Shown piece by piece: positions 4,389 through 60,722 of a stretch of DNA of 64,000 nt. The translations under genes and the position numbers were made by a program. The stretch lies in the NCBI GenBank assembly GCA_965112155.1, contig OZ218102.1. The stretch is one strand, 5' to 3'. Below the pieces are notes generated by a model that ran no database searches, was not told where the DNA came from, and worked only from the letters and a program-made list of their open reading frames with translations. How positions within the stretch are numbered: the first letter of the stretch is position 1; the number at the start of each line of letters is the position of its first letter. This DNA is from Podarcis liolepis. Taxonomy: Eukaryota.

Positions 4389-6390
4389 TACATGGTCATC
4401 AGCCAGGAGGCTAATTTCTTGCCTCCTTTTGTCTCATTGGTTTGTGTACATTTTCCAGAGTTACAGGAGTACCCTTGGCATTCTGCGTTTGCCCCAAATT
4501 TCCCCCAGATTTGGGGAGACTGGCTTCTTGAATTTTGCACATCATGCAGAACAAGTCAATGGAATCTGCGCCTGTACCACTTCAGACTGCAAATGGGGTG
4601 CTACTTTTTAAATGCTCCCTCACATAAAAGAAGTCCCCATCCCTAGCTTGAAGTTGAAGAGAGAAGCTCAGCACAGTCCCTTTTCTGATACAATTGGCTT
4701 ATTCTGTAAATAAAGCTTTTGGTATTACCCTTCCCCCTCTGCCCACCCACAGTCTGAAGTGGTACGTTCCAGGATTCTGTCGTGTCAGTCTTATCTCTGC
4801 ATCATGCATAATGTGTAAACTGGAGTGGCTCTTATTTAGTATTATGCGATGTTCTCTAGACCTGAAAGCCCAAACTGTGTGCATCAGCTCAGACTGGCTG
4901 TGCTTGTCACAGATGTGTGCTTGCTGATAGATGAAAGATTTAGAATTTTAACTTTGAACTAAGAGAGGGGGATTGCGGGGGGGATGAGGGACGGACCTCA
5001 ACACTTCTATTCTCAATTTCATTCATGCAGGAAACAGGCAAACAGGAAGTATCTTCCCTAAGTCTCAGGCTTTGCCATTTTTATTTATTTAATGATTAAT
5101 CTGTGAAGCAGAGCAAAATAAATCAGAATTTCATTCCCAGCAGGACTGACCTAAAAGTTTGTGCTCATAAATGTGTATTACAGTAATCTATAAATCGCAT
5201 TTTCATACTCTGCTTTTTCTGCATTTTACTAATTTGCATGTCTGCTTTCTTGTATGCATCTGTTTCAGTTTGTTTGCCTAATTATATTTCTGCTTTACAC
5301 TTTCTCCAGGGAGCTCAGGGTGGCAGACATGGTATTCTATATATTTTTAAAAAACCCCACCTGCACTTCTTAACTTGTCTCATCAGGCTTTTGCACTGGA
5401 TCACATCAGATAACAATCAGTATAATTAAAAACAGAAGAAAAATTAGATCAGACATCCTCTAGGACTTGATCCAGTCCTACAGTAGGTACCATGTGGATA
5501 CAGGAAGGAATTATGTTAGAGTGGGTGACCAATGCAGTATCCTCCATATGTTGTTGGACTCAACCCCCATTTGACCCAGCCAACATTAATGATGAATATG
5601 AGAGGCCCCATCTGTATTGGCATCCCACTGGCTTTCGAATATGTACCTGCTTATACAGGAATTACCTTGGTCTCTCAACATCTGTTGTTTTAATGGGGTT
5701 GCTTTACTGTGTATTTTAAAGGTGGAAGGTGGTATTTTAATGTCTGTAGAACTAGTTTTTATGTTTTGTAAATTGCTGGGAAACCTTTTTGGCATCAGTT
5801 ATCTATGCCCTGGTTACATCCAGGCCCTATTACTGCAATATTGTTTTCTATGTGGAGCTGCCTTGAAAAACAGCCTGGAAGCTTCAGCTGGTGCCCAGTG
5901 CCATGGCTAGTTTGCTGTTTTGGTCTCTGTACATGGAGCCCATAACTCCATTCTTGCTCCTTTGGCATTTGCTGTCCAGTCATTTACAGGCTCAATTTAA
6001 TGTGCTGAATGGTTCAGAAACCAAGTCCTCCAATACCAACCTGCCCATACTTGTAAGATTACCTTTGGAAGCCCTGCTCTATATAGGTTCAATTTATATG
6101 TGATGTCAGGTGGCTAGGAATGAGAGACTGGGCCTTCTTGATGATTGTGCTGATGTTATAAAATTCGTTCCTGATGGGATACCTGCAGAGAAACCTCTCA
6201 TTTTGTTTATAAAATGCCAGTGAATCCTTTTTTAAAAACTTGTTCTTAATGTGTGATCTACTGTTGTTATAAAATCTTTCCCTTTTATTTGTTGGAGGGT
6301 TTGGGTTTTTGTACTGTTGCCTTACTTCAAGTTTTTATCATTTTTGCTATTATTGTGTTTGTTTAGCCTTGACTGCCTTTTCGTTCTGGT

Positions 6391-6965
6391 TGTTGTTGTT
6401 TAGTCGTTTAGTCGTGTCCGACTCTTCGTGACGCCATGGACCAGAGCATGCCAGACACTCCTGTCTTCCACTGCCTCCCACAGATTGGTCAGACTCATGT
6501 TTGTAGCTTGGAGAACACTGTCCAGCCATCTCGTCCTCTGTCGTCCCCTTCTCCTTGTGCCCTCCATCTTTCCCAACATCAGGGTCTTTTCCAGGGAGTC
6601 TTCTCTTCTCATGAGGTGGCCAAAGTATTGGAGCCTCAGCTTCATGATCTGTCCTTCCAGTGAGCACTCAGGATACGTTTGATCTTCTTGCAGTCCATGG
6701 GACTCTCAAGAGTCTCCTCCAGCACCATAATTCAAAATCATCAACTCTTCGGCGATCAGCCTTCTTTATGGTCCAGCTCTCACTTCCATACATCACTACT
6801 GGGAAAACCATGGCTTTAACTATATGGACCTTTGTTGGCAAGGTGATGTCTCTGCTTTTTAAGACGCTGTCTAGATTTGCCATCGCCTTTCTCCCAAGGA
6901 GCAGGCGTCTTTTAATTTCGTGACTGCTGTCACCATCTGCAGTGATCATGGAGCCCAAGAGTCCA
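6391..6965 (-). mobile_element. Bov-B (RTE) LINE 3' fragment with (CAA)n tail
   Basis: Encodes LGSMITADGDSSHEIKRRLLLGRKAM..KLRLQYFGHLMRREDSLEKTLMLGK..RRRGRQRTRWLD. 11-bp TSD TTCGTTCTGGT at 6380-6390 and 6966-6976. Confidence 0.93.
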
Positions 6966-13610: not shown

Positions 13611-15486
13611 GACTAGATGATTCTCGTGGTTCCTTCCAACTCTACAATTCTATGATTCTATACTTTGCCACTGTGCAACTCTTTTGTCAGTAGTATTGTC
13701 AGTAATATATTGCCTGCAGCAGGTGGAATGTAGCAATGGCTGGAGCACCAAAGAGGTTGCTTACAAGGTCTTCCCTCCTTCATATAGCTACTATGGCCAT
13801 TCAGGTTAAACTCTCCTCTAAAGGTCTCTTGAGGGCCATGTATCACTCTGTAGAGTAGACAAACATCTGGAGGATGTTTATTTATTTAGAAGCAGCAATG
13901 CTATTTCAAGATACAAGTTGTAGCAAAGTCTCCTCTTTGTGCAGGAATAAAGCAAAAAATAAAATAAAATTCAAAGTGCCAGCAAAAAAAGTTTTCGCTT
14001 GGAATAAGTAAGAGAAGTTTCACTTAGCAGGAAGACTTTTGATCAGCTTTCACATGTGAAATCAAGAGGTTGATATTTAGCTGAAAAGACTGAAGAAAAG
14101 GAAAGTGTGTGTGTGTGTGAAAGGAGGGGAGGATATTTGCTTCGCAGAATATAGGAAAATGTCACAGAGGCCAATTAAATATAGTAGTGGATTTTGTAAA
14201 AGGACTACAGTGACATTTGCTGAAAATAAGGTTTGAAGTCACTGCCAATCAGCTGACTGGCAGTGTCCGATTAAATTTCCTTTGCCCGATTAAATTTCCT
14301 TTGCAGGTACAGTTTGAAGCCAATCTGTGCCTTCAAAGAAAACAGTGGGTCACCTTACACCATAGTGATGTCAGGTGTCTGGCAGGTGGGTGGCCCTGCC
14401 TATGTATCAAAGGGGGTCACAGTATGGGAGGGGGGAGCTCAGGATGTCACACATCAACCAGCTCCTGTTCCTCACCCCTGCCTTATGGGACAATGAAAGC
14501 AGGCCACTAGACGGTAATTTGGACTGCTTGGGTCAAATTAAGATGTGTATCACTGCCCCAGCAGATCAACAATTTTGCCAGTTTTTAAATGCCTTTAGAA
14601 CCCAAAATTAGATTTCTAGCTGCCTTCCTTGCCATTGTGGCTGTATGCAGTGTGGGGAGGTTGTCTCGGTGCTAAATTTGGCCCTGAAGCCTAGGCAGCG
14701 TCTGCAGCTCTAGACATTCTGCACCTGCTGAAATCAATAGAATCACTCCCACAGGCACACGGTAGTCTGCATTCTTTCATCTGTGCTAAATTTAAAGAGC
14801 TGCAGCTTAAATAGAAAGCCAAGGTGGGACTTCAGAAGCAATCATCACTATATAGCTTTGTCCCCAAAGCTACTAAGTTGTCCTCCTTGGACTTGAGGCT
14901 GCAACAGATGCAACGACAGCAAAATCTTCTGCATGCTCACTGAACTCCAGAATATATTCCACAGACTTGGACTTGCAAATGACAACATCTGCTGGAGATG
15001 TTCTGTGCCTTGGGGGACCGTAGTTCATATTTTATGGCCTTGGCCTGTCAGAGCTCCATTCTGGCAAGAAGCAGAGCTGTGAATTAGCTCCCCACCACCA
15101 CCCCACTGCCTTGATTCAGCTTTCATATTTTCTCCTTTTAACCTAAATTAAGGATATATGTCATTGACATTGAAGATTACACCATGTTGAAAAGTATGGA
15201 ACACACAAGCTTCTATGATAGCTCCCCAAAACAGGTTAACATTGAGCTCGGCAACCACTGAAACCTGATTGGAGGAACTATTAGACTTGTCAGTCAAATA
15301 ACAAATCCTACTGAATGGGTTCAGTCACAGGTTTGGGCTGTGCGTTGCTGAGGAGACTCCTTGGTGTTTGGCTACAGCGGCTTAGCATCCTTTCCCCTTA
15401 AAAGTCTTCAAACCAGCCTGGTGTACCATCTAGAGTCAACCTGGTGTTCTCCAGTTATTTTTGGACTCCAGACCCCACCATCCCTG

Positions 15487-15874
15487 TGTTGGGAAACTGC
15501 CAGGGAGATAGTGTCCATCATGAGCCCCCAAGCTGGAGTTCTGGACGTCCATCGGCCTCCCGTACTCACGCAGATCCAACAGTTAGCGACACGAAGCCTC
15601 TGGAAATTCCTAGCCACATTCCAGGGCTGGGTGTACACTGTTTATCAGCAGAAACACAGCCAAAAGCTTGCATCACAGAAGAGCATAATTTACAGACTTT
15701 ATTTAGCGTTTAACAGAACAAAAGAAAACACGTCCATTCTGTCAGCGTGTCTGAGCCGACTGAAAACGAAAGGAAACAACAGCAGACATAAACATCCTGT
15801 GACTAGGACATGCGCAGACTCTGTTACTTACAAAAGCCTGCTCCCTTTTAAGGTGGAACGGAAATATCCTAACA
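15487..15874 (-). repeat. 3' LTR of copia element
   Basis: Direct repeat of 20161-20548. Minus-strand AATAAA at 15698-15703. Confidence 0.97.
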
Positions 15875-18800
15875 TCCTCCCCCTTTCCGTGTAACCTGTT
15901 GTACCTGTGGTTCACCCAATTGCAACCTTTGTACATAAACCTTAAGTTGTTCTTTGTTAACAACCTTAGACAACAGATCAGCAGGAATTTCATTTCCTGG
16001 CATGTAGGACACCTGAATCAGTCCTTTCTGAATACACTCTCTTGCACGATGTAGCTTAATCTGCAAGTACTTGGTTCTCTGCTTGCAACTCTCGGAGTTC
16101 AGCAAAGCCAAACAAGATCTATTGTCTTGATACACTTGTACAGGACATTTCACAGACACCCTGATGTCCTTAAACAGTTGCATCAACCATTCACAATCCA
16201 TGAGTGAAAATGACAGAGCATTGAGTTCTGCTTCACAGGAACTTAGGCTCACTGTTGTCTGCTTCTTGCACAACCAGTCAAACAGGCAGTGGTTGTACAT
16301 GTAGCATACTCCAGAAGTGCTTGTACCATCCGTGGTGTCACTTCCAAAACTAGCATCTGCAAAGATTTCAAGACCTCCAGTCTTCTGACTGGTGAACCTC
16401 AGCCTGTAGTGCATAGTCCCTTTCAAATAGCGGGCTATGCGCTTCAGAGCTTTCCAATCCTGAACCGTAGGATTGTTGGCATGTCTGCTAAGCAGATTAC
16501 AGCTTACAGCTATATCAGGTCTTGAACATCTGGCAATGAAATTCAGCTTGCCTAGAATGCATCTGTACAGCGTTGTGTCTGAAAACACTTCAGCAGTACT
16601 GTCTACCTGGTAACCTGTCACCATCGGTGTGTCTGCTGGGTTTGCATCAACCAAATTCAACCTGGTTAGCACATCAGCAATTTTCTGTGTTTGGTGTACC
16701 AGAAAATTACCTGCTTGGTCCTTCTCCACCTGCAGAGAAAGATAGTTGGATACCTCACCAAGATCCTTCATGTCAAAGTGCTCCTTCAGTTGAGCTAGGG
16801 TGCTTTGGTAAAAAGCCTGATTCTTCCAAAACATCAGAAGATCATCAACAAAACATAAACAATACAGTTTGTTTTGCCCCTCTTCCTTGACAAACACACA
16901 TGGATCAGCTTTGCCCTGGTGAAAACCTAGAGAAAGCAATGTCTCAGTGAGTTTTGTGTTCCAACACCTGGCACTTTGCTTGAGACCATATAAGGATTTC
17001 CGCAGTTTACAGACCATTCCCTTCTGTATCTGCATCCCATCAGGTGGAAGCATGAACAGCTGTTCATTCAAAATCCCGTACAAAAAAGCTGTATTAATGT
17101 CGTGGTGGGAAACATGCAGTTTCTCCTCCGCAGCGACCTTGAGCATCAGCCGAATGCTCTCATATTTGACTGTGGGTGAGTAGGTCTCATGGTAATCCTG
17201 TCCTGGTACCTGTGAAAAACCTCTGGCAACCAATCTGGCTTTGTGTCTGACTACCTTGCCATTCTGGTCTGTCTTGGCCTTGAAGACCCATTTGCTGCCA
17301 ACCAGTCTCATTCCTGGGACTACCGGTACCAATTCCCAAGTTTGGTTCCTGTTCAAGGAATCAACTTCAGCCTTCATGGCATTAAGCCAAGGCTCAGCAT
17401 CTTTAGAGGTTAACTCCTGAACCTCTTTGAAGCTTGAAGGTTCCCACACCTTCTCTGAGCTACTAAGAACAGCTGTTGCTGTCTTAGCAAACTCATCAGC
17501 ATACCTCTTTGGAGGTCTGCCTTTGGTCGCCCTTTCAGATCTGCGTACTAGACGCAAGTCTTCTGGACTCATCTCCTCTTTCTTAGGAGAAAAGTGACCA
17601 ATGGTGAACAGTGGTTCTTCCAGTTCATTGTCAGACGCATCAGACGGTCTGACTGAGGCCTTTGCGCTCTGGTAGTCTGCTGTGTCATCACTTTCACTGA
17701 CATCAGCAGCAGCGCCGCCCACTGAACTGGAATCCGAACTCTGATCATCATCATCATCATCCTCATCATCAGCAGCTTTCTCATCTTTAGCTGCTTGCCT
17801 GACATCACCTTCATCCTCCTCTGGGTAACTCTGGAAAATTCCCACATTTTCCCCCCACTTAGGATTGTACTCAACACTCCTTGTGAACTTAATGGACTTA
17901 GAGTCAGTCATCCATACCCTGTATGCACCTTTTTCGTACCCCATGAACAAACCATGTGCCCCACGCTTCCCAAGCTTGTTGGTTTGTTGTGTGCGTACCC
18001 ACATGTCCGAACCAAAAATTCTCATGTGTTTGGTGTTGGGTTTCTTGCCAAACATCTTCTCATAGGGGGTACAACCAATGGGTGATGACAATCTGCGATT
18101 AACGGTATAAACCAAATTCCCCAGAGCTTCCCCCCAAAACTTATCAGGGAGATTGGCATCATGCAACAAGGTTTTGATTCCTTGCAGCAATGTTTGATTT
18201 GCTCTCTCCGCAAGCCCATTCATCCATGGCGATCTGGGGGTTGACATGTCATGCTGGATTCCCTTCTCAGTCAGGAAAGCTTCAAACTGCTGAGAAGTAA
18301 ACTCCCCGCCCCGATCAGTAAAAAAACAAGAAATACGTTTACCGTGCACATTCTCCAACCATGCACAGAATTCCTTAAACTTCGGAAACGCTTGCAATTT
18401 CTGTTCGAGCAAATACACATGAATGTACCTGGAAAAGGAATCAATCAGAATCATGAAGTACCTTGCTCCTCCTATAGAGGGCGCTAGTGGCCCAACCAGG
18501 TCTGCATGCACTAGCTGGTAGGGTTTGGAAGCCTGCCTGCTAGACTCCTTGCCTTTTGGAGCAACCTTCACCTTGTTCTCTGCACAAGATACACATTTCA
18601 TGTGAAATTTACAGGGTTTGATGTTCAAACCTTCAACCACCTCTGGCATCTTGGCCAGTGCCTTCCAAGAGAGGTGACAAAATCTTCGATGCGCATCATG
18701 AATGCAACCTGCATGAAGAACTTTGTTAGTTTGTGCAACACAACAAGAATCAGCATTAGAAACAATAGCAGTGTCATCATAAGTTATATGGAACAAACCA

Positions 18801-19924
18801 TCCATAAACTTTGCATGCAAATAGTCCTCTTTGCCTTTACTGATGACACAGACGCTCCTCTTGAAGGAAATCTGAAAACCACGCCCAGTAAGCTGTGGGA
18901 CACTCAACAAGTTGCTTGCAGCGCCTGGAACATATAGTACACCACTGATGGTTGTGTGCAAACTTGCAAGTTTCACAGTCCCTTCTCCTGCAATTTGCAA
19001 CGTCCTTCCATCAGCCAGGTGGATCTCACCTTCCTGAGGCTTGAAGGAGATAAAGAGGTGCCTGTCCTTCGAAACGTGGCGATTCGCACCTGAATCCACA
19101 ATAAATCTGCCTTTGGCTGTTGGAGCAGTCTTAACAGCAAGCAAACCCTTGTTTTGCAGCTTGCCCCCCTGCTGCTCCTGGCCAGCAGACGTGCCTTTAG
19201 CCTTTGGTGAAGCTGTGCCAGTAAACAACGCCTTGCTTTCCACTGGCGTGGGCTTTTGCAGCTTGCCCCCCTGCTTCTGGTCAGCAGACGTGCCTTTAGC
19301 CTTTGGTGAAGCTGTGCCAGCAAACAATGCTTTGTTTTTCCCTGGCGCCGCGGGCTCTTCACCCTCCCTCTGCTCCTGGCCATCTGCAGGTGTCTGCCTG
19401 TGGTTCTGTTTACCTTTGCCTATCCGGCCTCTGCAAAGGCGATGACCTTGGTTCTCACGAGAACCAGAGCTCTTAGCTGCCGACTCCTTGGCTCCCCCTG
19501 GAGGCTGGAATGCTGTCTGGGATGACGTGACGGTCAGCTCCCCCTGCAGCTTGCAACCGGTGCCCTCAGCATCCCTGCACTCAATCGCATTCTGGGAAAC
19601 AGCTAGGACCTCCGATGCAGTCAAACTCTGGGCTGGGATTATTGACTTGTGAGCTTTTTTTAAAGCATACCACATTGCACGTGCAGTGGTGTTGCCAGCC
19701 AGCGTCTTAATTTCCTCAAGAGATACGGATAAGACTATTATGTCCATCGCTCTCGAATCAGCTGATTTCCATTTCTCTGTCAGAGGAACTGGGGGGGCTT
19801 CATAAACAACATGCCACACCCCAAACTGACGCAGTAAACTCTCACACCATTTTGCCCAGGGTTCATAATTCTGCCCATCCAACTTAGGGCACTCAGCATT
19901 TCCATAAGCTTGGAAAAACCCCAT
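15869..19924 (-). CDS. Copia Gag-Pol polyprotein, 1351 aa
   Basis: Gag N-terminus KLDGQNYEPW..TARAMW; protease FIVDSGANRH; IN zinc finger HRRFCH..CVSC; IN DDE HADLVGP / TDRGGEF / NGLAERAN; RT KARLVARGF, HDINTAFL, KSLYGLKQ, FVDDLL; RNase H FADASF..EAE..YQDN..ADLLSK. Confidence 0.97.
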   Translation of the reverse strand: MGFFQAYGNAECPKLDGQNYEPWAKWCESLLRQFGVWHVVYEAPPVPLTEKWKSADSRAMDIIVLSVSLEEIKTLAGNTTARAMWYALKKAHKSIIPAQSLTASEVLAVSQNAIECRDAEGTGCKLQGELTVTSSQTAFQPPGGAKESAAKSSGSRENQGHRLCRGRIGKGKQNHRQTPADGQEQREGEEPAAPGKNKALFAGTASPKAKGTSADQKQGGKLQKPTPVESKALFTGTASPKAKGTSAGQEQQGGKLQNKGLLAVKTAPTAKGRFIVDSGANRHVSKDRHLFISFKPQEGEIHLADGRTLQIAGEGTVKLASLHTTISGVLYVPGAASNLLSVPQLTGRGFQISFKRSVCVISKGKEDYLHAKFMDGLFHITYDDTAIVSNADSCCVAQTNKVLHAGCIHDAHRRFCHLSWKALAKMPEVVEGLNIKPCKFHMKCVSCAENKVKVAPKGKESSRQASKPYQLVHADLVGPLAPSIGGARYFMILIDSFSRYIHVYLLEQKLQAFPKFKEFCAWLENVHGKRISCFFTDRGGEFTSQQFEAFLTEKGIQHDMSTPRSPWMNGLAERANQTLLQGIKTLLHDANLPDKFWGEALGNLVYTVNRRLSSPIGCTPYEKMFGKKPNTKHMRIFGSDMWVRTQQTNKLGKRGAHGLFMGYEKGAYRVWMTDSKSIKFTRSVEYNPKWGENVGIFQSYPEEDEGDVRQAAKDEKAADDEDDDDDDQSSDSSSVGGAAADVSESDDTADYQSAKASVRPSDASDNELEEPLFTIGHFSPKKEEMSPEDLRLVRRSERATKGRPPKRYADEFAKTATAVLSSSEKVWEPSSFKEVQELTSKDAEPWLNAMKAEVDSLNRNQTWELVPVVPGMRLVGSKWVFKAKTDQNGKVVRHKARLVARGFSQVPGQDYHETYSPTVKYESIRLMLKVAAEEKLHVSHHDINTAFLYGILNEQLFMLPPDGMQIQKGMVCKLRKSLYGLKQSARCWNTKLTETLLSLGFHQGKADPCVFVKEEGQNKLYCLCFVDDLLMFWKNQAFYQSTLAQLKEHFDMKDLGEVSNYLSLQVEKDQAGNFLVHQTQKIADVLTRLNLVDANPADTPMVTGYQVDSTAEVFSDTTLYRCILGKLNFIARCSRPDIAVSCNLLSRHANNPTVQDWKALKRIARYLKGTMHYRLRFTSQKTGGLEIFADASFGSDTTDGTSTSGVCYMYNHCLFDWLCKKQTTVSLSSCEAELNALSFSLMDCEWLMQLFKDIRVSVKCPVQVYQDNRSCLALLNSESCKQRTKYLQIKLHRARECIQKGLIQVSYMPGNEIPADLLSKVVNKEQLKVYVQRLQLGEPQVQQVTRKGGGC
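15875..15888 (-). promoter_or_regulatory. Polypurine tract
   Basis: Minus strand GGAAAGGGGGAGGA directly abuts the TGTTAGG start of the 3' LTR. Confidence 0.9.
19152..19340 (-). repeat. In-frame ~100-bp tandem duplication within gag
   Basis: KALFAGTASPKAKGTSADQKQGGKLQ and KALFTGTASPKAKGTSAGQEQQGGKLQ, plus a diverged partial third unit just before the protease. Confidence 0.9.
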
Positions 19925-20142
19925 TTCCAGCTTTTTGCTTTAGCCGTGAGTCCTTCTAAGCCTTCAAAGACTCCTTATCTCGGCAGCCCATTAATCATGA
20001 AGCCTTTCTGGCTCGGCTCCCAGGCCAATTAATCTGCCTTGCCGGAGATCAAAGAAAAGCGTCCCTTCTTTCTTTCGCTTTTCCCACAACATACCTCAAA
20101 CGCAGTCTGTTGCAGCTTTACTCTTCTGTAGGTGCCGTGAAT

Positions 20143-20156
20143 CTGGGCCCGAAACC
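20143..20156 (-). promoter_or_regulatory. Primer binding site, copia half-tRNA type (variant)
   Basis: GGTTTCGGGCCCAG, 4 nt inside the 5' LTR. Matches the classical copia PBS GGTTATGGGCCCAG (anticodon arm of initiator tRNA-Met) at 12/14 positions. Confidence 0.8.
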
Positions 20157-20160
20157 TTGT

Positions 20161-20548
20161 TGTTGGGAAACTGCCAGGGAGATAGTGTCCATCATGAGCC
20201 CCCAAGCTGGAGTTCTGGACGTCCATCGGCCTCCCGTACTCACGCAGATCCAACAGTTAGCGACACGAAGCCTCTGGAAATTCCTAGCCACATTCCAGGG
20301 CTGGGTGTACACTGTTTATCAGCAGAAACACAGCCAAAAGCTTGCATCACAGAAGAGCATAATTTACAGACTTTATTTAGCGTTTAACAGAACAAAAGAA
20401 AACACGTCCATTCTGTCAGCGTGTCTGAGCCGACTGAAAACGAAAGGAAACAACAGCAGACATAAACATCCTGTGACTAGGACATGCGCAGACTCTGTTA
20501 CTTACAAAAGCCTGCTCCCTTTTAAGGTGGAACGGAAATATCCTAACA
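20161..20548 (-). repeat. 5' LTR of copia element
   Basis: 388 bp. No difference from the 3' LTR seen by eye, and the ORF-track peptides over both copies are identical. Confidence 0.97.
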
Positions 20549-22543
20549 CCCTGATCATTGGCCACATTGGTTGGGCCTGATGGGAAGTGGAGCTCAGCCA
20601 AATTTGGAAGGCACCATGTTGGCTACCCCTGCTCTATAGTGAAAAGGTTTGGACTTAACAGATATGATCATAGCAATGCATTTAATGTCATCTTGTCTGA
20701 ATTTTTAGAATTCTCTGAATCCTGACTCTTTCCGTGCCTGTGTATTTGGTGTGGCTTCACACACCAGCGCTTTCATCCTCTCCATTTCTTCCCCCTTATT
20801 CTGACTCTTCCTATCCATCTCTTTCTCCTCTTCGGAGCTTGCTGAGTTTCTCTTTCAGAAGTGGGGCAGAACATCCAACTCTTACTTTTATAGGGAGGTT
20901 CATTTGTTTTGCACATTAGCATAGTCAGAAAAAATATCTAAAATGCGCAATATATATATCTTTTAAAAATGTTCCACTGTGGGTACAGTATCTTTCCTTA
21001 AAACTGGAAAGGCCCAGGTTCCACTGAGAAGAACCATATGGGGTTGCTGTGTGTCTTAATGTGCTCCATGATGTCTCCCTGCCCCCCAGGTTGGATCCTT
21101 GTAGTATATTAGTCATCTTACTACTCACTGCTCATCACAGTGATGTTTATTTGGCTAGTTCTGTTAGGCCATGAGTTAATTTCTTAGGAAAGGATCACTT
21201 CATGTGCACAGATACAACTAATTCCGTGTCATTTTTGTTTTGTTTAATATTGTCCACATTAAACTGTTGAAGTTGCCAGCCTAACATCACAGCGAGTTTC
21301 CTGCTGCATTTCCGATAGCCACTTTGTACTGTCTTGATATCCCTCGAAGCTTTGTATGGTTAAAGGTGTTTAGATACTTCCACTCCATCGAAAAGCACAC
21401 TGTCACAACTCCAAGTTTGTCTGAAAGCCTCACATTACAATGCAAAGGTAAGAGAGGGACCATCTCTTCCTCAGATTTGCAGTGCTTCCAGAGAAAATGT
21501 TTTGTTCTTTGATAGGGGCTAGAGTTTTAGATAAGTTCACGTTCTTTAAAAGATAATATATAGTCTCTTGCCCAATCTGAGACTGCAGTCCTGAAACTCC
21601 TTGCAGATATACAAATCCCACCAAGGGGTTATAAATGTCCAAGAATTGCAAGTCATTGAAAGACATGCTCTTGGGAGAGGGATTGAAATGAAGCCGAGTG
21701 ACACGTTTGTGGGAGAGTATCATTGCCTTGTATGTTAGACAAGAAGTGACATATCTATTACTGGGAAATCTAAAAGTTAGGCAAGCAGGAAAATGGCATA
21801 CCTTGCATATCCAGCTGGAGAGTGCAATGAATATTGAAGGGTAATCATGATAATCATTAATCGTGTTTGCTGAGAACTCCATTTTCATTTGTCTGGACTT
21901 TTGATGTTTTGAGTAGTGGGCATTTCTGTTTTCTGTGAGCATTTGTCTTGTCATCAAGTGAATCAAAGTGCAGCCTCTACGAACGTTTCGGTCTTGATTT
22001 TTCAAATCCAGTGCTGGTTGTAATCCAGGCTTTTAGCAAAAGCTTTTGAAGCTTATCCTGCCCCCCCCCACCCCGGTTTACGGCCCAGGGGGTCCTAATG
22101 ACATTGCTCACCAAGGGGGCAGGGAATGGTTACCGCCTACTCTAAAGAGTAGAAACATAGAGCTGAAATTTCTGCGTCTGCTGCTTTTGAAACTGCAGCA
22201 TTGCTCTATGAAAATAGATCCAGTTTGGCAATGTGCAAAACAGTGTTCTTGCACTATAATGATACAATTTTTCTTAGTGTTTTATCCATGCTATTATATA
22301 TTGATAAAGTCTGCATTGTAGCTAATCAATGCAGAGCAGTGGTTTTATTTGACAGCCATAATGAAGCATTATTCCAACTCTCTTCATCATGAGCTTACTT
22401 GCCAGACTTGTAGGCAGCGAAATTCTTGTTTTGTTTTGTTTTGTTTTGGACAGGGAAGGGGAAGGGTGATTTTATTGTTGCCATCCTGTTCACTTCCCCA
22501 TCATTCATTCTGCTTTTAGAAGTGCATCTCACTTGATTCCTCA

Positions 22544-29388: not shown

Positions 29389-29774
29389 AGGTAAATGTAA
29401 AGGTAAAGGACCCCTGGATGGTTAGGTCCAGTCAAAGGTGACTATGGGGTTGCAGCACTCATCTCGCTTAAGGGCGAGGGGGCCAGCATTTGTCCGCAGA
29501 CAGCTTTCCGGGTCATGTGGCCAGCACGACTAAATGGCTTCTGGCACAACGGGACACTGTGATGAGTGCCAGAGTGCATGGAAACACAATTTATCTTCCC
29601 GCCGCAGTGGTACCTATTTATCTACTTACACTGGCGTGCTTTCGAACTGCTGGGTTGGCAGGAGCTGGGACAGAGCAATGAGAGCTCACCCTGTTGCACG
29701 GACTGGAACTGCTGACCTTCTGATCAGCAAGCCCAAGAGGCTCAGTGGTTTAGACCACAGCTCCACCCGCTCCC
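29389..29774 (-). mobile_element. Sauria SINE, near full length
   Basis: AAAGGT tail at left, TTTATCTACTTAC and TTCGAACTGCT motifs, head GGGAGCGGGTGG on the minus strand. Confidence 0.9.
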
Positions 29775-30919
29775 TCTTATAATGTGACGTCATAGCAACA
29801 TCACATGATTGACCGGAGGGACCCCCTGCTGGGTTAACAAGTGCTGCCTGTTGTTGTGGGAAGAGACAAAATCCCACATTTTTAAAAAACCAGGATCAAA
29901 CTTTAGTGCACTTGTTGTTTAGTGCACAAATTGCATACTATATCCCCCCCCCCCATTAGATACTAACATTTATGTTTATGTTGAAGATGGAGGCATTTTT
30001 CTCGGGTTCCCCTATCTGCAAAAGGAATTTTTTACACTCTGATGCTTAATACAGCTGTCCCTTCAGTCAGTCTAATGTGAATGTGAAATCTACATTGGCC
30101 AGTACACTGATTTGCATTACAAATGTCCTCCAGTTTTCACTCCACAGTAACAATGATCAGGCATTTACATAACTGGCCCATGAGAGGCTCAAAGGCAATT
30201 TAAGACTCACCTGTGAAAATACCCAAAGTTTGACATTTTGTACATTCTAGGTGTGCTTCAAATGCATGATCTCCCTGGTCCCTGCCATGACCTTCAACAA
30301 TGCTGAAATTCCAGCATAGTTGTTATATGAGGCTAGCTGGAAAAGAAATTATTTAAGGCCCATGGGGAAATAAGGTTGCCACCTGTTTAGAATTTGATAT
30401 GGGCTGATCTTAGTTTAGGAAATGTGTACCCAATGAATGTTATGATAGATAGACCCAGTCTGTATTTTCTGGGTTCAAACAGATTTCAGTCCGTCATGGA
30501 TTGTGTTGCAAGGAAGGGCAAAGGAACAATTAATGAACTAAGGGTAACTTCATTTAGAAAACAATACAATAACAATACAAATGTTATTGGTTTTCCAGGT
30601 AAAGACAAATCCAAAGGAATGAACTTCAAATATAAAATTACCCACCCCCATCTCAGAGAGTACAGAGACAGCAGTAGATGAAAATACATGAACTACAGAG
30701 TTAAAGTTATGCCACAGATATAGGATAATCTCATTTTAAAAATAAAATGCATATTTTTGCTCCCCACCCCCAAGACCATGCTGTTTCTACCCCCCCCCCA
30801 TTACTACTTGGGTGTTAGTTCCCAGTTTAACAACTTCATCTTCAATCCTTAAACCAACATGAGCAGATAAAGCGGCTGAGCCATTTTTGTGTTGATCAAT
30901 CTTCTTTGCCTCAAAATAC

Positions 30920-34475: not shown

Positions 34476-34895
34476 CATTATTGTCACTTAGTCGTGTCCG
34501 ACTGTCCGTGACCCCATGGACCAGAGCACCCCAGGCACTCCTGTCTTCCACTGCCTCCCGCAGTTTGGTCAAACTCATGTTTGTAGCTTCAAGAACACTG
34601 TCCAACCATCTCGTTTCTGTCGTCACCTTCTCCTTGTGCCCTCAATCTTTCCCAACATCAGGCTCTTTTCCAGGGAGTCTTCTCTTCTCATGAGGTGGCC
34701 AAAGTATTGGAGCCTCAGCTTCAGGATCTGTCCTTCCAGTGAGCACTCAGGGCTGATTTCCTTAAGAATGGATAGGTTTGATCTTCTTGCTGTCCATGGG
34801 ACTCTCAAGAGTCTCCTCCAGCACCATAATTCAAAAGCAGGAACTGGCAAGCCACTCCAGTATCCCTGGCAAGAAAACTCCATGGACAGAAACAA
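34476..34895 (-). mobile_element. Bov-B 3' fragment joined to an inverted Bov-A/Bov-B-5'-like piece
   Basis: Minus strand encodes FELWCWRRLLRVPWTARRSN..YFGHLMRR up to about 34838, then plus-strand GGAACTGGCAAGCCACTCCAGTATCCCTGGCAAGAAAACTCCATGGACAG. Flanks CAGGCAGTTA / CAGGAAGTTA. Confidence 0.85.
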
Positions 34896-43680: not shown

Positions 43681-43784
43681 TTAGAGTTAGTCGTGATAAA
43701 AAAAATATGCATGGGATTGGCGTTGGAGTTTCACTACCCTCCCTTCCTCCATTCCCATCTCTGTTCTGCTGAAACCATTATTAT

Positions 43785-44154
43785 GGGACGCGGGTGGCGC
43801 TGTGGGTAAAACCTCAGTGCCTAGGACTTGCTGGTCGTATGGTCGGCAGTTCAAATCCCCATGGCAGGGTGAGCTCCCGTCGTTCGGTCCCAGCTCCTGC
43901 CCACCTAGCAGTTCGAAAGCACTCTTAAGTGCAAGTAGATAAATAGGGACTGCTTAATAGCGGGAAGGTAAACGGTGTTTCCGTGTGCTGCGCTGGTGCT
44001 GGCTCGCCAGCTGCAGCTTCGTCACGCTGACCACGTGACCCGGAAGTGTCTTTGGACGGCGCCGGCTCACAGCCTCTAGAGCGAGATGAGCACGCAACCC
44101 CAGAGTCGGACACGACTGGCCCGTACGGGCAGGGGTACCTTTACCTTTACCTTT
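43785..44154 (+). mobile_element. Sauria SINE, full length
   Basis: GGGACGCGGGTGGCGCTGTGG head, Bov-B-like GAGTCGGACACGACT near the 3' end, (ACCTTT)3 tail, ATTATTAT on both flanks. Confidence 0.93.
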
Positions 44155-44836
44155 TATTATTATAAAAGATTTTCATCTGGGCTGAGCTGAAATGACTCAG
44201 TATTCTCCCACTTTCCCTTTTTCCTTACATTGAAAAATGCCTTCCTTGTTTGACTTTCTTTTTTTGGGAGGGGATATTTCAACTAATATTTTGATTGACA
44301 CTATCCTTGGGGAGCACTGCAGTTCTTTTCTTGAAAGTCCACACTACAGGGGCTGCTCTCTTTCTTTTTTAAAGTTTTGTTAATGATTTCCCAACATACA
44401 TTTTACATACATTGGATTTCAAAGCAGGCACCACAATCCAACACCCAAGAACCCAAGATGAGAGTTTCCCATAGTACTTGTGTTCCGGTGGGTGGAGGTG
44501 GGAATCTACAGCAACATCTCAGCTGTCCTCGTTCCAGACTGAATATTAGGATGGATGGAACCATATTAATGTAGCATTTGCATGTTTTTGCCAGCAAGTC
44601 ATTGCCAGTAGTGGACACACTTGTGGGATGTGGAAACCTATGAAAGAATTCAAGTTGTTCCTTAGAGATATTTCTTATCCCTGGATATTTGGGTGTTCAG
44701 GTAGATGGGATCCTATTTGAGCAAGTCACAGCTGAGAGTAACAGGAGAAAGGTACTGAAAAAATAGCACAAATTGCTGCTGCTTATTATTGCATTTATTT
44801 TTATTAATTTAACAATTTGCTTATTGCCAAGCATTT

Positions 44837-45409
44837 CCTGGGCTCCATGATCACTGCAGATGTTGACAGCAGCCACAAAATTAAAAGACGCCTGCTTCTT
44901 GGGAGAAAAGCAATGACAAACCTAGACAGCATCTTAAAAAGCAGAGACATCACCTTGCCAACAAAGGTCCGTATAGTAAAAGCTATGGTTTTCCCAGTAG
45001 TGATGTATGGAAGTGAGAGCTGGACCATAAAGAAGGCTGATCGCCGAAGAATTGATGCCGGAGACTCCTGAGAGTCCCATGGACTGCAAGAAGATTAAAC
45101 CTATCCAGCCTTAAGGAAATCAGCCCTGAGTGCTCACTGGAAGGACAGATCATGAAGCTGAGGCTCCAATACTTTGGCCACCTCATGAGAAGAGAAGACT
45201 CCCTGGAAAAGACCCTGATATTGGGAAAGATTGAGGGCACAAGGAGAAGGGGACGACAGAGGACGAGATGGTTGGACAGTGTTCTTGAAGCTACCAGCAT
45301 GAGTTTGATCAAACTGCGGGAGGCAGTGGAAGACAGGAGTGCCTGGCGTGCTCTGGTCCATGTGGTCACGAAGAGTCGGACACGACTAAATGACTAAACA
45401 ACAACAACA
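44837..45409 (+). mobile_element. Bov-B LINE 3' fragment with (CAA)n tail
   Basis: LGSMITAD..KRRLLLGRKAM..YGSESWT..KLRLQYFGHLMRR. TSD AAGCATTT at 44829-44836 and 45410-45417. Confidence 0.93.
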
Positions 45410-52710: not shown

Positions 52711-53040
52711 GGGACACAGGTGGCGCTGTGGATTAAACCACAGAGCCTAGGGCTTGCCAATGAGAAGGTCGGTGGTTCGAATCCCCACGACAGGGTGAGC
52801 TCCCGTTGCTGGGTCCCTGCTCCTGCCAACCTAGCAGCTCGAAAGCATGTCAAAGTGCAAGTAGATAAATAGGTACCGCTCTTGCGGGAAGGTAAACAGT
52901 GTTTCCGTGCGCTGCTCTGATTCACCAAGTGGCTTTGTCATGCTGGCCACATGACCTGGAAGCTGTACGCCGGCTCCCTCAGCCTGTAAAGCGAGATGAG
53001 CGCCGCAACCCCAGAGTCGTCTGCGACTGTACCTATTTAC
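52711..53040 (+). mobile_element. Sauria SINE
   Basis: GGGACACAGGTGGCGCTGTGG head, GGTTCGAATCCC B box, diagnostic body, tail partly lost. Confidence 0.92.
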
Positions 53041-56497: not shown

Positions 56498-56751
56498 GGA
56501 TGGTGTACGGCTTGGTGATGTCACAAAAGCACTGAGCCGTGATGATCAGACAATCTGTGAAAGGAACGTTGGGATTGGTGTACTGGTGGGTGATGTCACA
56601 AAAGCACTGAGCCGTGATGATCACACAATCTGTGAAAGGAACGTTGGGATTGGTGTACTGGTGGGTGATGTCACAAAAGCACTGAGCCGTGATGATCAGA
56701 CAATCTGTGAAAGGAACATTGGGATTGGTGTACTGGTTGGTGCACTGAGCC
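56498..56751. repeat. 75-bp tandem repeat, about 3.3 copies
   Basis: TCACAAAAGC recurs at 56521, 56596 and 56671. Units differ by only 1-2 substitutions. Confidence 0.95.
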
Positions 56752-60329: not shown

Positions 60330-60722
60330 GGGTGCAGGTGGCACTGTGGTCTAAACCACTGAACCTCTTGGGCTTGGCAATCGGAAGGTTGGTGGTTCGA
60401 ATCCGTGCAACGGAGCGAGCTCTCGTTGCTCTGTCCTTGCTTCTGACAACCAAGCAGTTTGGCAGAAAGAATGCCAGTGCAAGTAGATAAATAGGTACCT
60501 CTGCAGCAGGAAGGTAAATGGTGTTTCTGTGTGCTCTGGTTTCTGTCATGGTGTTCCATTGCACCAGAAGCGGTTTAGTCATGCTGGCCACATGACCTGG
60601 AAAGCTGTCTGTGGACAAACGCCAGCTCCCTCGGCCTGAAAGCGAGATGAGTGCCGCAACCCCATGGTTGCCTTTGACTGGACTTAACCATCCAGGGGTC
60701 CTTTAACTTTACCTTTACCTTT
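60330..60722 (+). mobile_element. Sauria SINE, full length
   Basis: Head, GGTTCGAATCC B box, GTGCAAGTAGATAAATAGGTACC, (ACCTTT)n tail. Confidence 0.92.

Follow-up and report, generated by a model that had tools for sequence, protein, structure and literature searches.

A young capsid-defective Ty1/copia morph with an open pol in Podarcis liolepis, probably mobilized in particles of complete-Gag copies

Background

Helper-dependent morphs are known among long terminal repeat (LTR) retrotransposons, including Tos17, BARE-2, IAP 1-delta-1 and the bovine ERVK D type, and none of them matches the anatomy of the element analysed here, a Ty1/copia insertion on the minus strand (positions 15487-20548) of a 64,000-nucleotide stretch of Podarcis liolepis DNA (contig OZ218102.1, assembly GCA_965112155.1), hereafter the window. 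Barley BARE-2 is reportedly a copia element that has pol, makes no working Gag and is proposed to use the particles of a relative. Rice Tos17 has likewise kept pol in the absence of a working Gag, with a relative's particles proposed as its vehicle, as here; its gag, however, was lost without a remnant and it is 57% identical to its proposed helper, whereas the window element keeps the N-terminal domain (NTD) of the capsid in frame and has its LTR and pol in one recombining pool with its partner (PMC3977881). Tos17 and BARE-2 are plant elements, whereas the window element is an animal one. Mouse IAP 1-delta-1 is described as a similar non-autonomous in-frame deletion fusion that dominates new insertions and whose fusion protein is reported to act in cis; it is, however, an endogenous retrovirus in which a 1.9-kb deletion hits both gag and pol, both then supplied in trans, whereas the pol of the window element is whole (PMC6466679). 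In bovine ERVK[2-1-LTR] C/D, where 15% of copies are competent and 85% defective, recombination in the flanks was read as co-packaging and divergence is deep at the type-specific block, both as seen here; the D type has no open reading frame (ORF), whereas the deleted copia keeps protease, integrase, reverse transcriptase (RT) and RNase H under purifying selection (PMC10924933). Conserved ORFs in non-autonomous copies have also been described for Athila families (PMC2410132). Among squamates, the copia of the corn snake (PMC4657000, PMC11948899) and the Mtanga clade (PMC11889832) are likewise young, polymorphic and high in copy number; the parts of these accounts drawn on here mention no gag dimorphism, a distinction that comes from descriptions and not from sequences.

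The window element is probably a member of a young capsid-defective copia morph that encodes its own Pol and transposes in particles built from the Gag of complete copies. Its anatomy is distinct in three respects: the losses are restricted to the capsid C-terminal domain (CTD) and the zinc knuckle, the NTD remains joined to a complete Pol, and the gag types act like ancient alleles within a single recombining element. A literature search, with subscription journals, Repbase and supplements outside it, found no report of a capsid-domain-only form.

Gag deletion in an otherwise complete element

The window copy is a capsid-defective copia with its gag remnant fused in frame to pol. The minus-strand stop-to-stop frame (15869-19939) comprises 1356 codons, or 1351 amino acids counted from the first methionine, in agreement with an earlier note that had described an open frame of about 4 kb from the sequence alone. 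The motifs listed in that note (DSG, H..H/C..C, D-D-E, FVDD and the RNase H acidic residues) were all located, and Pfam matches above cut-offs support the protease, integrase, SH3 domain and RT, the copia-type RT (PF07727) reaching 229 bits. Gag (PF14223) also passed its cut-off, with 39 bits and half of the model covered. The domain order protease - integrase - RT - RNase H and the combination of LTRs that both end in TG...CA with a primer binding site (PBS), a polypurine tract (PPT) and a 5-bp target-site duplication (TSD) identify a Ty1/copia element, and the open pol with its catalytic residues is that of an autonomous one. A two-domain capsid and a CCHC nucleocapsid knuckle, both of which also belong to an autonomous copia, are absent from the window copy, and the description of the element as intact has to be given up, since it has lost the knuckle and the greater part of the CTD.

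The extent of the loss was defined by comparison with complete copies in the same genome. Ninety other loci were retrieved, chosen by similarity to the window or to the complete copy L001 and leaning young; together with the window, 85 of 91 have paired LTRs (6/91 gave a single LTR match), and these comprise 61 deleted-type copies, 22 complete copies and two with larger deletions (L095 was reassigned to the deleted type on its protein). The window Gag covers positions 1-87 of the 172-position Pfam model, and that of L001 covers 4-171. The L001 Gag, which carries a CCHC knuckle, aligns without gaps to residues 11-174 of the Drosophila Copia capsid (8vvw; see also 8s41, PMC11835246). Relative to L001, the window copy lacks residues 94-163, equivalent to about 89-158 of the Copia capsid. 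As the Copia NTD spans residues 1-90 and the CTD 91-186 (PMC11835246), the missing segment starts where the two domains are linked and takes out the greater part of the CTD; in contrast to Drosophila Copia, about 70 of 96 CTD residues and the knuckle are missing, the latter having lost its first two cysteines. The defect is uniform: the spacing between flanking anchors is 18 amino acids in 50/51 open deleted-type copies versus 88 in 16/16 complete ones, a deletion of exactly 70 codons, and a CCHC motif occurs in the longest ORF of 0/35 deleted-type versus 17/21 complete copies. Removal of the segment as a spliced GT..AG intron, a conceivable alternative, has no support at 33% divergence. A homolog search with the deleted Gag region returned 0 of 934 candidates at E 0.001, the candidates having lengths of 743-2365 only and being uninformative on deleted forms elsewhere. 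A single-sequence fold of the complete Gag had a mean predicted local distance difference test score of 43.5 and was not used.

It could be argued that the short Gag is sufficient and the element autonomous, as the 1351-residue frame, the full set of Pol motifs, the identical LTRs and the hundreds of young copies might suggest. This is very unlikely given the absence of the knuckle and of the greater part of the CTD, the proposal that CTD-CTD contacts lock Copia capsomers and that assembly needs RNA (PMC11835246), and the existence of complete-Gag copies that share LTR and pol alleles with the deleted type.

Abundance and youth of the deleted type

Diagnostic 20-mers, present in 61/61 deleted or 22/22 complete copies and absent from the other type, were matched exactly against the genome. 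The deleted-gag word gave 340 matches and the complete-gag word 48, and matches to words from RT and from the LTR numbered 581 and 869, respectively; the figure of 340 is a lower bound for the deleted type, because a second deleted-type word matches places missed by the first. The deleted morph is at least seven times as numerous as the complete-Gag copies. A similar picture emerged from the 39 other best RT matches, picked blind to gag, of which 34 were deleted, four complete and one gag-less. The deleted type is a subfamily amplified with a common defect, as its number of matches and constant deletion length show, and its complete-Gag partner in the same genome has the LTR, PBS and PPT in common with it.

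The LTRs of the window copy are identical over 388/388 bases and CCCTG stands on either side, in line with the LTR identity by eye and the exact TSD of the earlier note. Outside 12 ignored columns at each LTR end, there are no LTR mismatches in 44/61 deleted and 12/22 complete paired-LTR copies. Perfect TSDs of their own were found in 41 deleted-gag and 17 complete-gag copies, in which LTR mismatches amount to 10/14,963 and 10/6,205 sites, respectively. Could the identity of the LTRs be a product of assembly collapse, as that note had allowed, or of contamination? No support for either was found among these data, and the probability is close to negligible: the LTRs of the family differ by about 7% between elements and match within them, no other LTR in the genome is more than 96% identical to those of the window copy, the TSD is exact, the host repeat is cleanly interrupted, and 58 copies, the window's included, have a TSD of their own.

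The interrupted host repeat had been taken for an old miniature inverted-repeat transposable element (MITE), a view that our comparisons uphold. Other copies of the repeat are about 80% identical, and the two flanks, aligned separately, join on a 5-base overlap with a single CCCTG in 8/8 copies examined (8 of 11 non-self loci); in inverted orientation, moreover, the two flanks loosely resemble each other. On these two grounds the MITE reading holds, and the repeat is short, multicopy, inverted at its ends and contiguous elsewhere, as a MITE should be. The left flank as sole query gave only one other short match. Retention of CpG, also claimed previously, is partly borne out, in that the observed/expected ratio is 0.39 in the element (internal part 0.35, LTR 0.61) versus 0.27 in the rest of the window; the signal is weak, with some 2-kb bins of the window at 0.41-0.48.

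Several side observations concern the genomic distribution of the copies. The RT-word matches exceed those of the two gag words together by about 190 (581 vs 388), with near balance on contigs C1 and C2 and an excess elsewhere. Contig C20 (40 Mb, 2.5% of the genome), possibly a sex-limited chromosome, holds 14/48 complete-type matches (p 1e-11). It also holds at least 18/122 matches of a deleted-type word, and a specific enrichment of complete copies on C20 was rejected on that ground. Two copies on C20 (L026 and L027) form an inverted duplicate with one TSD, and at L105-L106 (C20, 20.77-20.79 Mb) three or more deleted-type units follow one another head to tail and share LTRs at a spacing of about 4.73 kb.

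One recombining pool outside gag

Codon analysis of 43 open copies (28 deleted and 15 complete) showed that the two types are deeply separated in gag and form one pool in pol. Between types, dS of the NTD reaches 1.08 and 129 differences are fixed in gag, against zero fixed differences over 3165 sites of pol, where 125 polymorphisms are shared and dS is 0.0705 between types vs 0.069 within. At the DNA level, in 78 copies (57 and 21; the duplicate L027, L010, and discordant or short copies were excluded), the fixation index (Fst) stands at 0.89 for the gag block, in contrast to -0.006 for the LTR and 0.009 for pol. All 139 fixed differences between the types lie within 19357-19886, a gag block of about 530 bp, while both alleles of common single-nucleotide polymorphisms occur in both types at 43/43 LTR and 132/134 pol sites, and four gametes were found in 6112/8886 distant pol site pairs. 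One copy, L003, begins with complete-type codons and then turns into the deleted type. Within a copy, the two LTRs show the same mosaic, which, together with the divergence of LTRs between elements, suggests that most exchange takes place at reverse transcription and not through later conversion, and that the RNAs of the two types are co-packaged. The same argument from recombination to co-packaging has been made for bovine ERVK (PMC10924933).

The gag split is old (dS about 1) and common to several related organisms, and the helper is not extinct. These features would suit two ancient gag alleles held in balance within one recombining element, one making the capsid and the other acting as an NTD-only deliverer of Pol and RNA, or else as a poisoner or limiter of particles. 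Such a balance is a tentative reading to which we give a limited chance; if true, it would contradict models in which defective elements of high affinity collapse the family. The Ty1 product p22 is said to consist of the CTD only, and an NTD-only allele would mirror it.

Probable empty site and transcripts in other organisms

Twenty sequencing runs from several coded organisms contain the flank or part of the stretch. In organisms A, B, F and H, the match of a flank contig ends at 15486, and the contig runs on for a further 128, 1582, 81 and 488 letters, respectively, that are unlike the LTR (the orientation of minus-strand records was deduced from the way in which records 1 and 2 overlap). 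This points to a probable empty insertion site in 4/4 DNA-type runs examined (4 of 24 listed); organism A is possibly the window's own species. The copia family is present in all four organisms; a contig of organism B spans the deletion junction with two differences, and run X11 has no cover over the junction at 19645.

RNA evidence consists of raw reads mapped to the element. Two stranded runs of organism H, which belong to a single study, give sense-strand cover over the full length of the element, deleted-type gag included, with depths of 17 and 9 at 19543-19698 and with 12 and 19 reads that cross from the LTR into the leader; cover in a single-cell run was thin. The insertion is, as the earlier note held, recent and likely mobile, and it is likely polymorphic; this is supported by its perfectly matching LTRs, by the 4/4 runs that pass the site without an LTR and by the sense RNA in a relative.

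A GT..AG joint inside pol (16927-18461, minus strand) was seen in four reads with two starts in one run, and its signals are kept in 58-59/61 deleted and 21-22/22 complete copies. It could, on this weak evidence, reflect a spliced RNA that enriches for Gag.

Priming by a tRNA half

The PBS pairs with bases 26-39, in the anticodon arm, of the host tRNA-Met(CAT) gene (L107), and not with the tRNA 3' end. The match is 14/14 in 27 copies and 12/14 in 55, including the window. Two deleted copies, the half-deleted L011 and the gag-less L088, both with matching LTRs, contain about 30 bases of the tRNA-iMet 5' half that continue from the PBS, next to the 5' LTR, and join window-equivalent positions 17966 and 19348 through microhomology. 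These copies of the tRNA 5' half are a direct trace of half-tRNA priming. Drosophila Copia is also primed by half of tRNA-iMet, and copia elements so primed, such as the present family, are labelled Hemivirus-type. Two PBS alleles occur in both gag types, the commoner being mismatched at two anticodon bases.

Coding capacity of the deleted type and its probable mode of transposition

The whole frame is open in 51/61 deleted and 16/22 complete copies, and dN/dS of pol is 0.17 in both gag types (0.20 deleted vs 0.19 complete at singleton sites). In simulations of neutral drift at 0.16-0.5 per site, 190 codons remained free of stops in 3.4% to 0.15% of runs, so that a gag remnant evolving neutrally would seldom escape stop codons. 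The deleted type accordingly needs an open frame, and a present role of the NTD protein is likely. Changes relative to the outgroup P0001 fall on the deleted and complete branches in a ratio of 9:7 in the NTD (sign test p 0.80) and of 11:1 in the CTD tail and knuckle (sign test p 0.006). Variation affects 2/25 hydrophobic vs 16/53 other NTD sites (p 0.04). Both comparisons fit an NTD kept under constraint. In contrast to Tos17, which encodes no protein derived from Gag, the deleted morph has pol preceded in the same frame by the NTD and a decayed tail; it would work in the manner of Tos17 and BARE-2 with a different anatomy.

The cycle proposed for the deleted morph would begin with a deleted gag fused in frame to an intact pol, as in the window copy, and with RNA made in sense, as observed in a relative. 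Presumably unable to form a capsid or to bind RNA through a knuckle, the morph would have its Gag supplied in trans, and its RNA would be co-packaged with helper RNA, as suggested by the free exchange of the LTR, the leader-proximal PBS and pol between gag types and the lack of exchange of the 530-bp gag block. Its own NTD-Pol protein would be translated, and by way of the kept NTD both this Pol and the RNA of the morph would be tethered inside helper particles. Priming by the tRNA-iMet 5' half, of which two copies bear traces, would follow, and integration would leave the 5-bp TSD that is found.

The deleted type might alternatively be a passive RNA parasite that is packaged by helpers and makes no useful protein, its frame being kept open for translation or for escape from nonsense-mediated decay and its pol being refreshed from helpers. 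The NTD dN/dS of about 1 in deleted copies, a pol fully shared with helpers, and the gag-less and half-deleted copies with a TSD or matching LTRs (L088 and L011) would all fit. We nevertheless hold this to be improbable: helpers make up about one copy in eight, yet whole frames are kept in 51/61 deleted vs 16/22 complete copies with equal pol dN/dS, and the NTD has not sped up on the deleted branch, while the knuckle and CTD tail have.

Several points weigh against transposition with the help of complete copies and a functional NTD. Trans-complementation is inferred from sequence patterns, and the RNA, of low depth, comes from organism H and not from the window's own sample. The NTD of deleted copies has a dN/dS of about 1.0 (95% interval 0.5-2.1), compared with 0.12 in complete copies, the contrast between NTD and the rest reaches only p 0.09, and polymorphism is no lower at those NTD sites that the outgroup conserves (5/27 vs 13/51, p 0.58); for these three reasons it is uncertain whether the NTD has a function today. 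Recombination with helpers could be the source of part of the purifying selection seen on pol. Pol Fst is slightly above zero (permutation p 0.037) and leader Fst is 0.12. Three of 61 deleted copies (L047, L048 and L055) have discordant LTRs with 27-75 mismatches and no TSD, which implies that exchange also occurs at the DNA level, likely after insertion. Roughly 190 RT-word matches fit neither gag word.

Annotation tools take copies of this kind for intact, as did the earlier note, on account of matching LTRs and an open frame of 1350 amino acids; about 87% of the young copies would here be miscalled autonomous, which may bear on squamate copia counts. The two types form a natural helper-cheater pair, cleanly marked by a 530-bp block and represented by hundreds of copies that are young and apparently polymorphic, and they open questions on the role of the NTD in Pol incorporation, on cis preference, and on collapse versus stability under cheating, the last simulated in PMC10924933.

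Origin and squamate context

The best named relative is a protein of the lizard Elgaria (61% over 248 amino acids and 49% over 197). The unnamed-host protein P0001 is 71% identical, everything else is at or below 43%, and named arthropod, nematode and plant proteins do not exceed 41%; a scan of 1.8 billion sequences gave, in its top 150, no representative from outside the family that exceeded 41%. In a tree of 41 sequences (the named matches, labelled, and the 24 top unnamed ones), the window element, P0123, P0001 and the Elgaria protein form a clade with an ultrafast bootstrap of 97 on a long branch.

The earlier note had treated copia as a minor group in vertebrates and had called a horizontal origin worth testing. 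In a survey of 263 metazoan genomes, copia was found in 23/24 squamates, which hold 66% of all copies, and rarity is not supported; among amniotes, copia is reported there only in Lepidosauria, and Mtanga is described as the only terrestrial copia clade in deuterostomes, so that the window family is expected to belong to it (PMC11889832). Polymorphic, active copia has caused two colour mutations in the corn snake, in OCA2 and CLCN2 (PMC4657000, PMC11948899). With young copia in squamates already published, neither the youth of the element nor its squamate host is out of the ordinary. A recent arrival from an arthropod, fish or amphibian has some appeal, in that birds, mammals, turtles and crocodilians lack copia, one published hypothesis has it transferred into tetrapods long ago (PMC11889832) and P0001 has no named host. 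It is highly improbable, however, given the lizard as best named match, the low identity of named arthropod, nematode and plant proteins, the lizard-containing clade, in which RT-RNase H of the window groups with the lizard protein, and the presence of the family in 4/4 related organisms examined. An ancient transfer into tetrapods may have occurred, a possibility that PMC11889832 also allows. The assignment of the window to a squamate is consistent with Elgaria as nearest named relative and with the reported restriction of amniote copia to Lepidosauria (PMC11889832); no host gene was identified to add to this, as 12 other long ORFs of the window had no Pfam match and the window no Rfam match.

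Features of the window

The features of the element and its flanks are listed in Table 1.

Table 1. Coordinates of the copia element, its coding and regulatory parts, and the interrupted host repeat
Feature	Position	Strand	Basis or remark
5' LTR, 388 bp, TG...CA	20161..20548	-	matches 3' LTR 388/388; LTR-to-leader RNA reads in organism H
PBS	20143..20156	-	complementary to tRNA-iMet bases 26-39, 12/14 match
Possible 142-nt GT..AG leader intron	19953..20094	-	one contig of run X15 and splice signals; weak
Retained N-terminal part of Gag, corresponding to capsid NTD, residues 1-92	19649..19924	-	PF14223 positions 1-87; L001 counterpart aligns to 8vvw
Junction of 70-codon in-frame deletion	19645..19652	-	placed to within a few codons
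Decayed nucleocapsid zinc knuckle, first two Cys gone	19433..19471	-	alignment with complete copies
Low-complexity Gag-Pol linker, repeat of about 100 bp in variable number	19152..19382	-	
Aspartic protease, DSG at 19088-19096	18875..19105	-	PF22936, residues 274-350
Integrase: HHCC, DDE core, SH3-like domain	17864..18700	-	PF13976 (below cut-off), PF00665, PF25597
Reverse transcriptase, FVDD at 16841-16852	16619..17347	-	PF07727, residues 860-1102, E 7e-68
RNase H, D..E..D..D motifs	15965..16363	-	motifs located in sequence
PPT adjoining 3' LTR	15875..15886	-	tract also in 17/18 other copies compared
3' LTR, 388 bp	15487..15874	-	
TSD CCCTG, left copy	15482..15486	+	
TSD CCCTG, right copy	20549..20553	+	
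Left part of old palindromic (MITE-like) host repeat	15430..15486	.	outer limit approximate
Right part of the same host repeat	20549..20640	.	168 candidates, of which 40 gave scored matches (76-85%)

Three further repeats were noted in the window. One family occurs at 6389-6960, 34483-34845 and 44836-45408, and is presumably of a BovB/Sauria-like type; a second is found at 29389-29784, 43776-44154, 52711-53035 and 60330-60720, the members of either family being 70-94% identical. A short tandem repeat at 56501-56742 consists of units of about 75 bp that are 96% identical.

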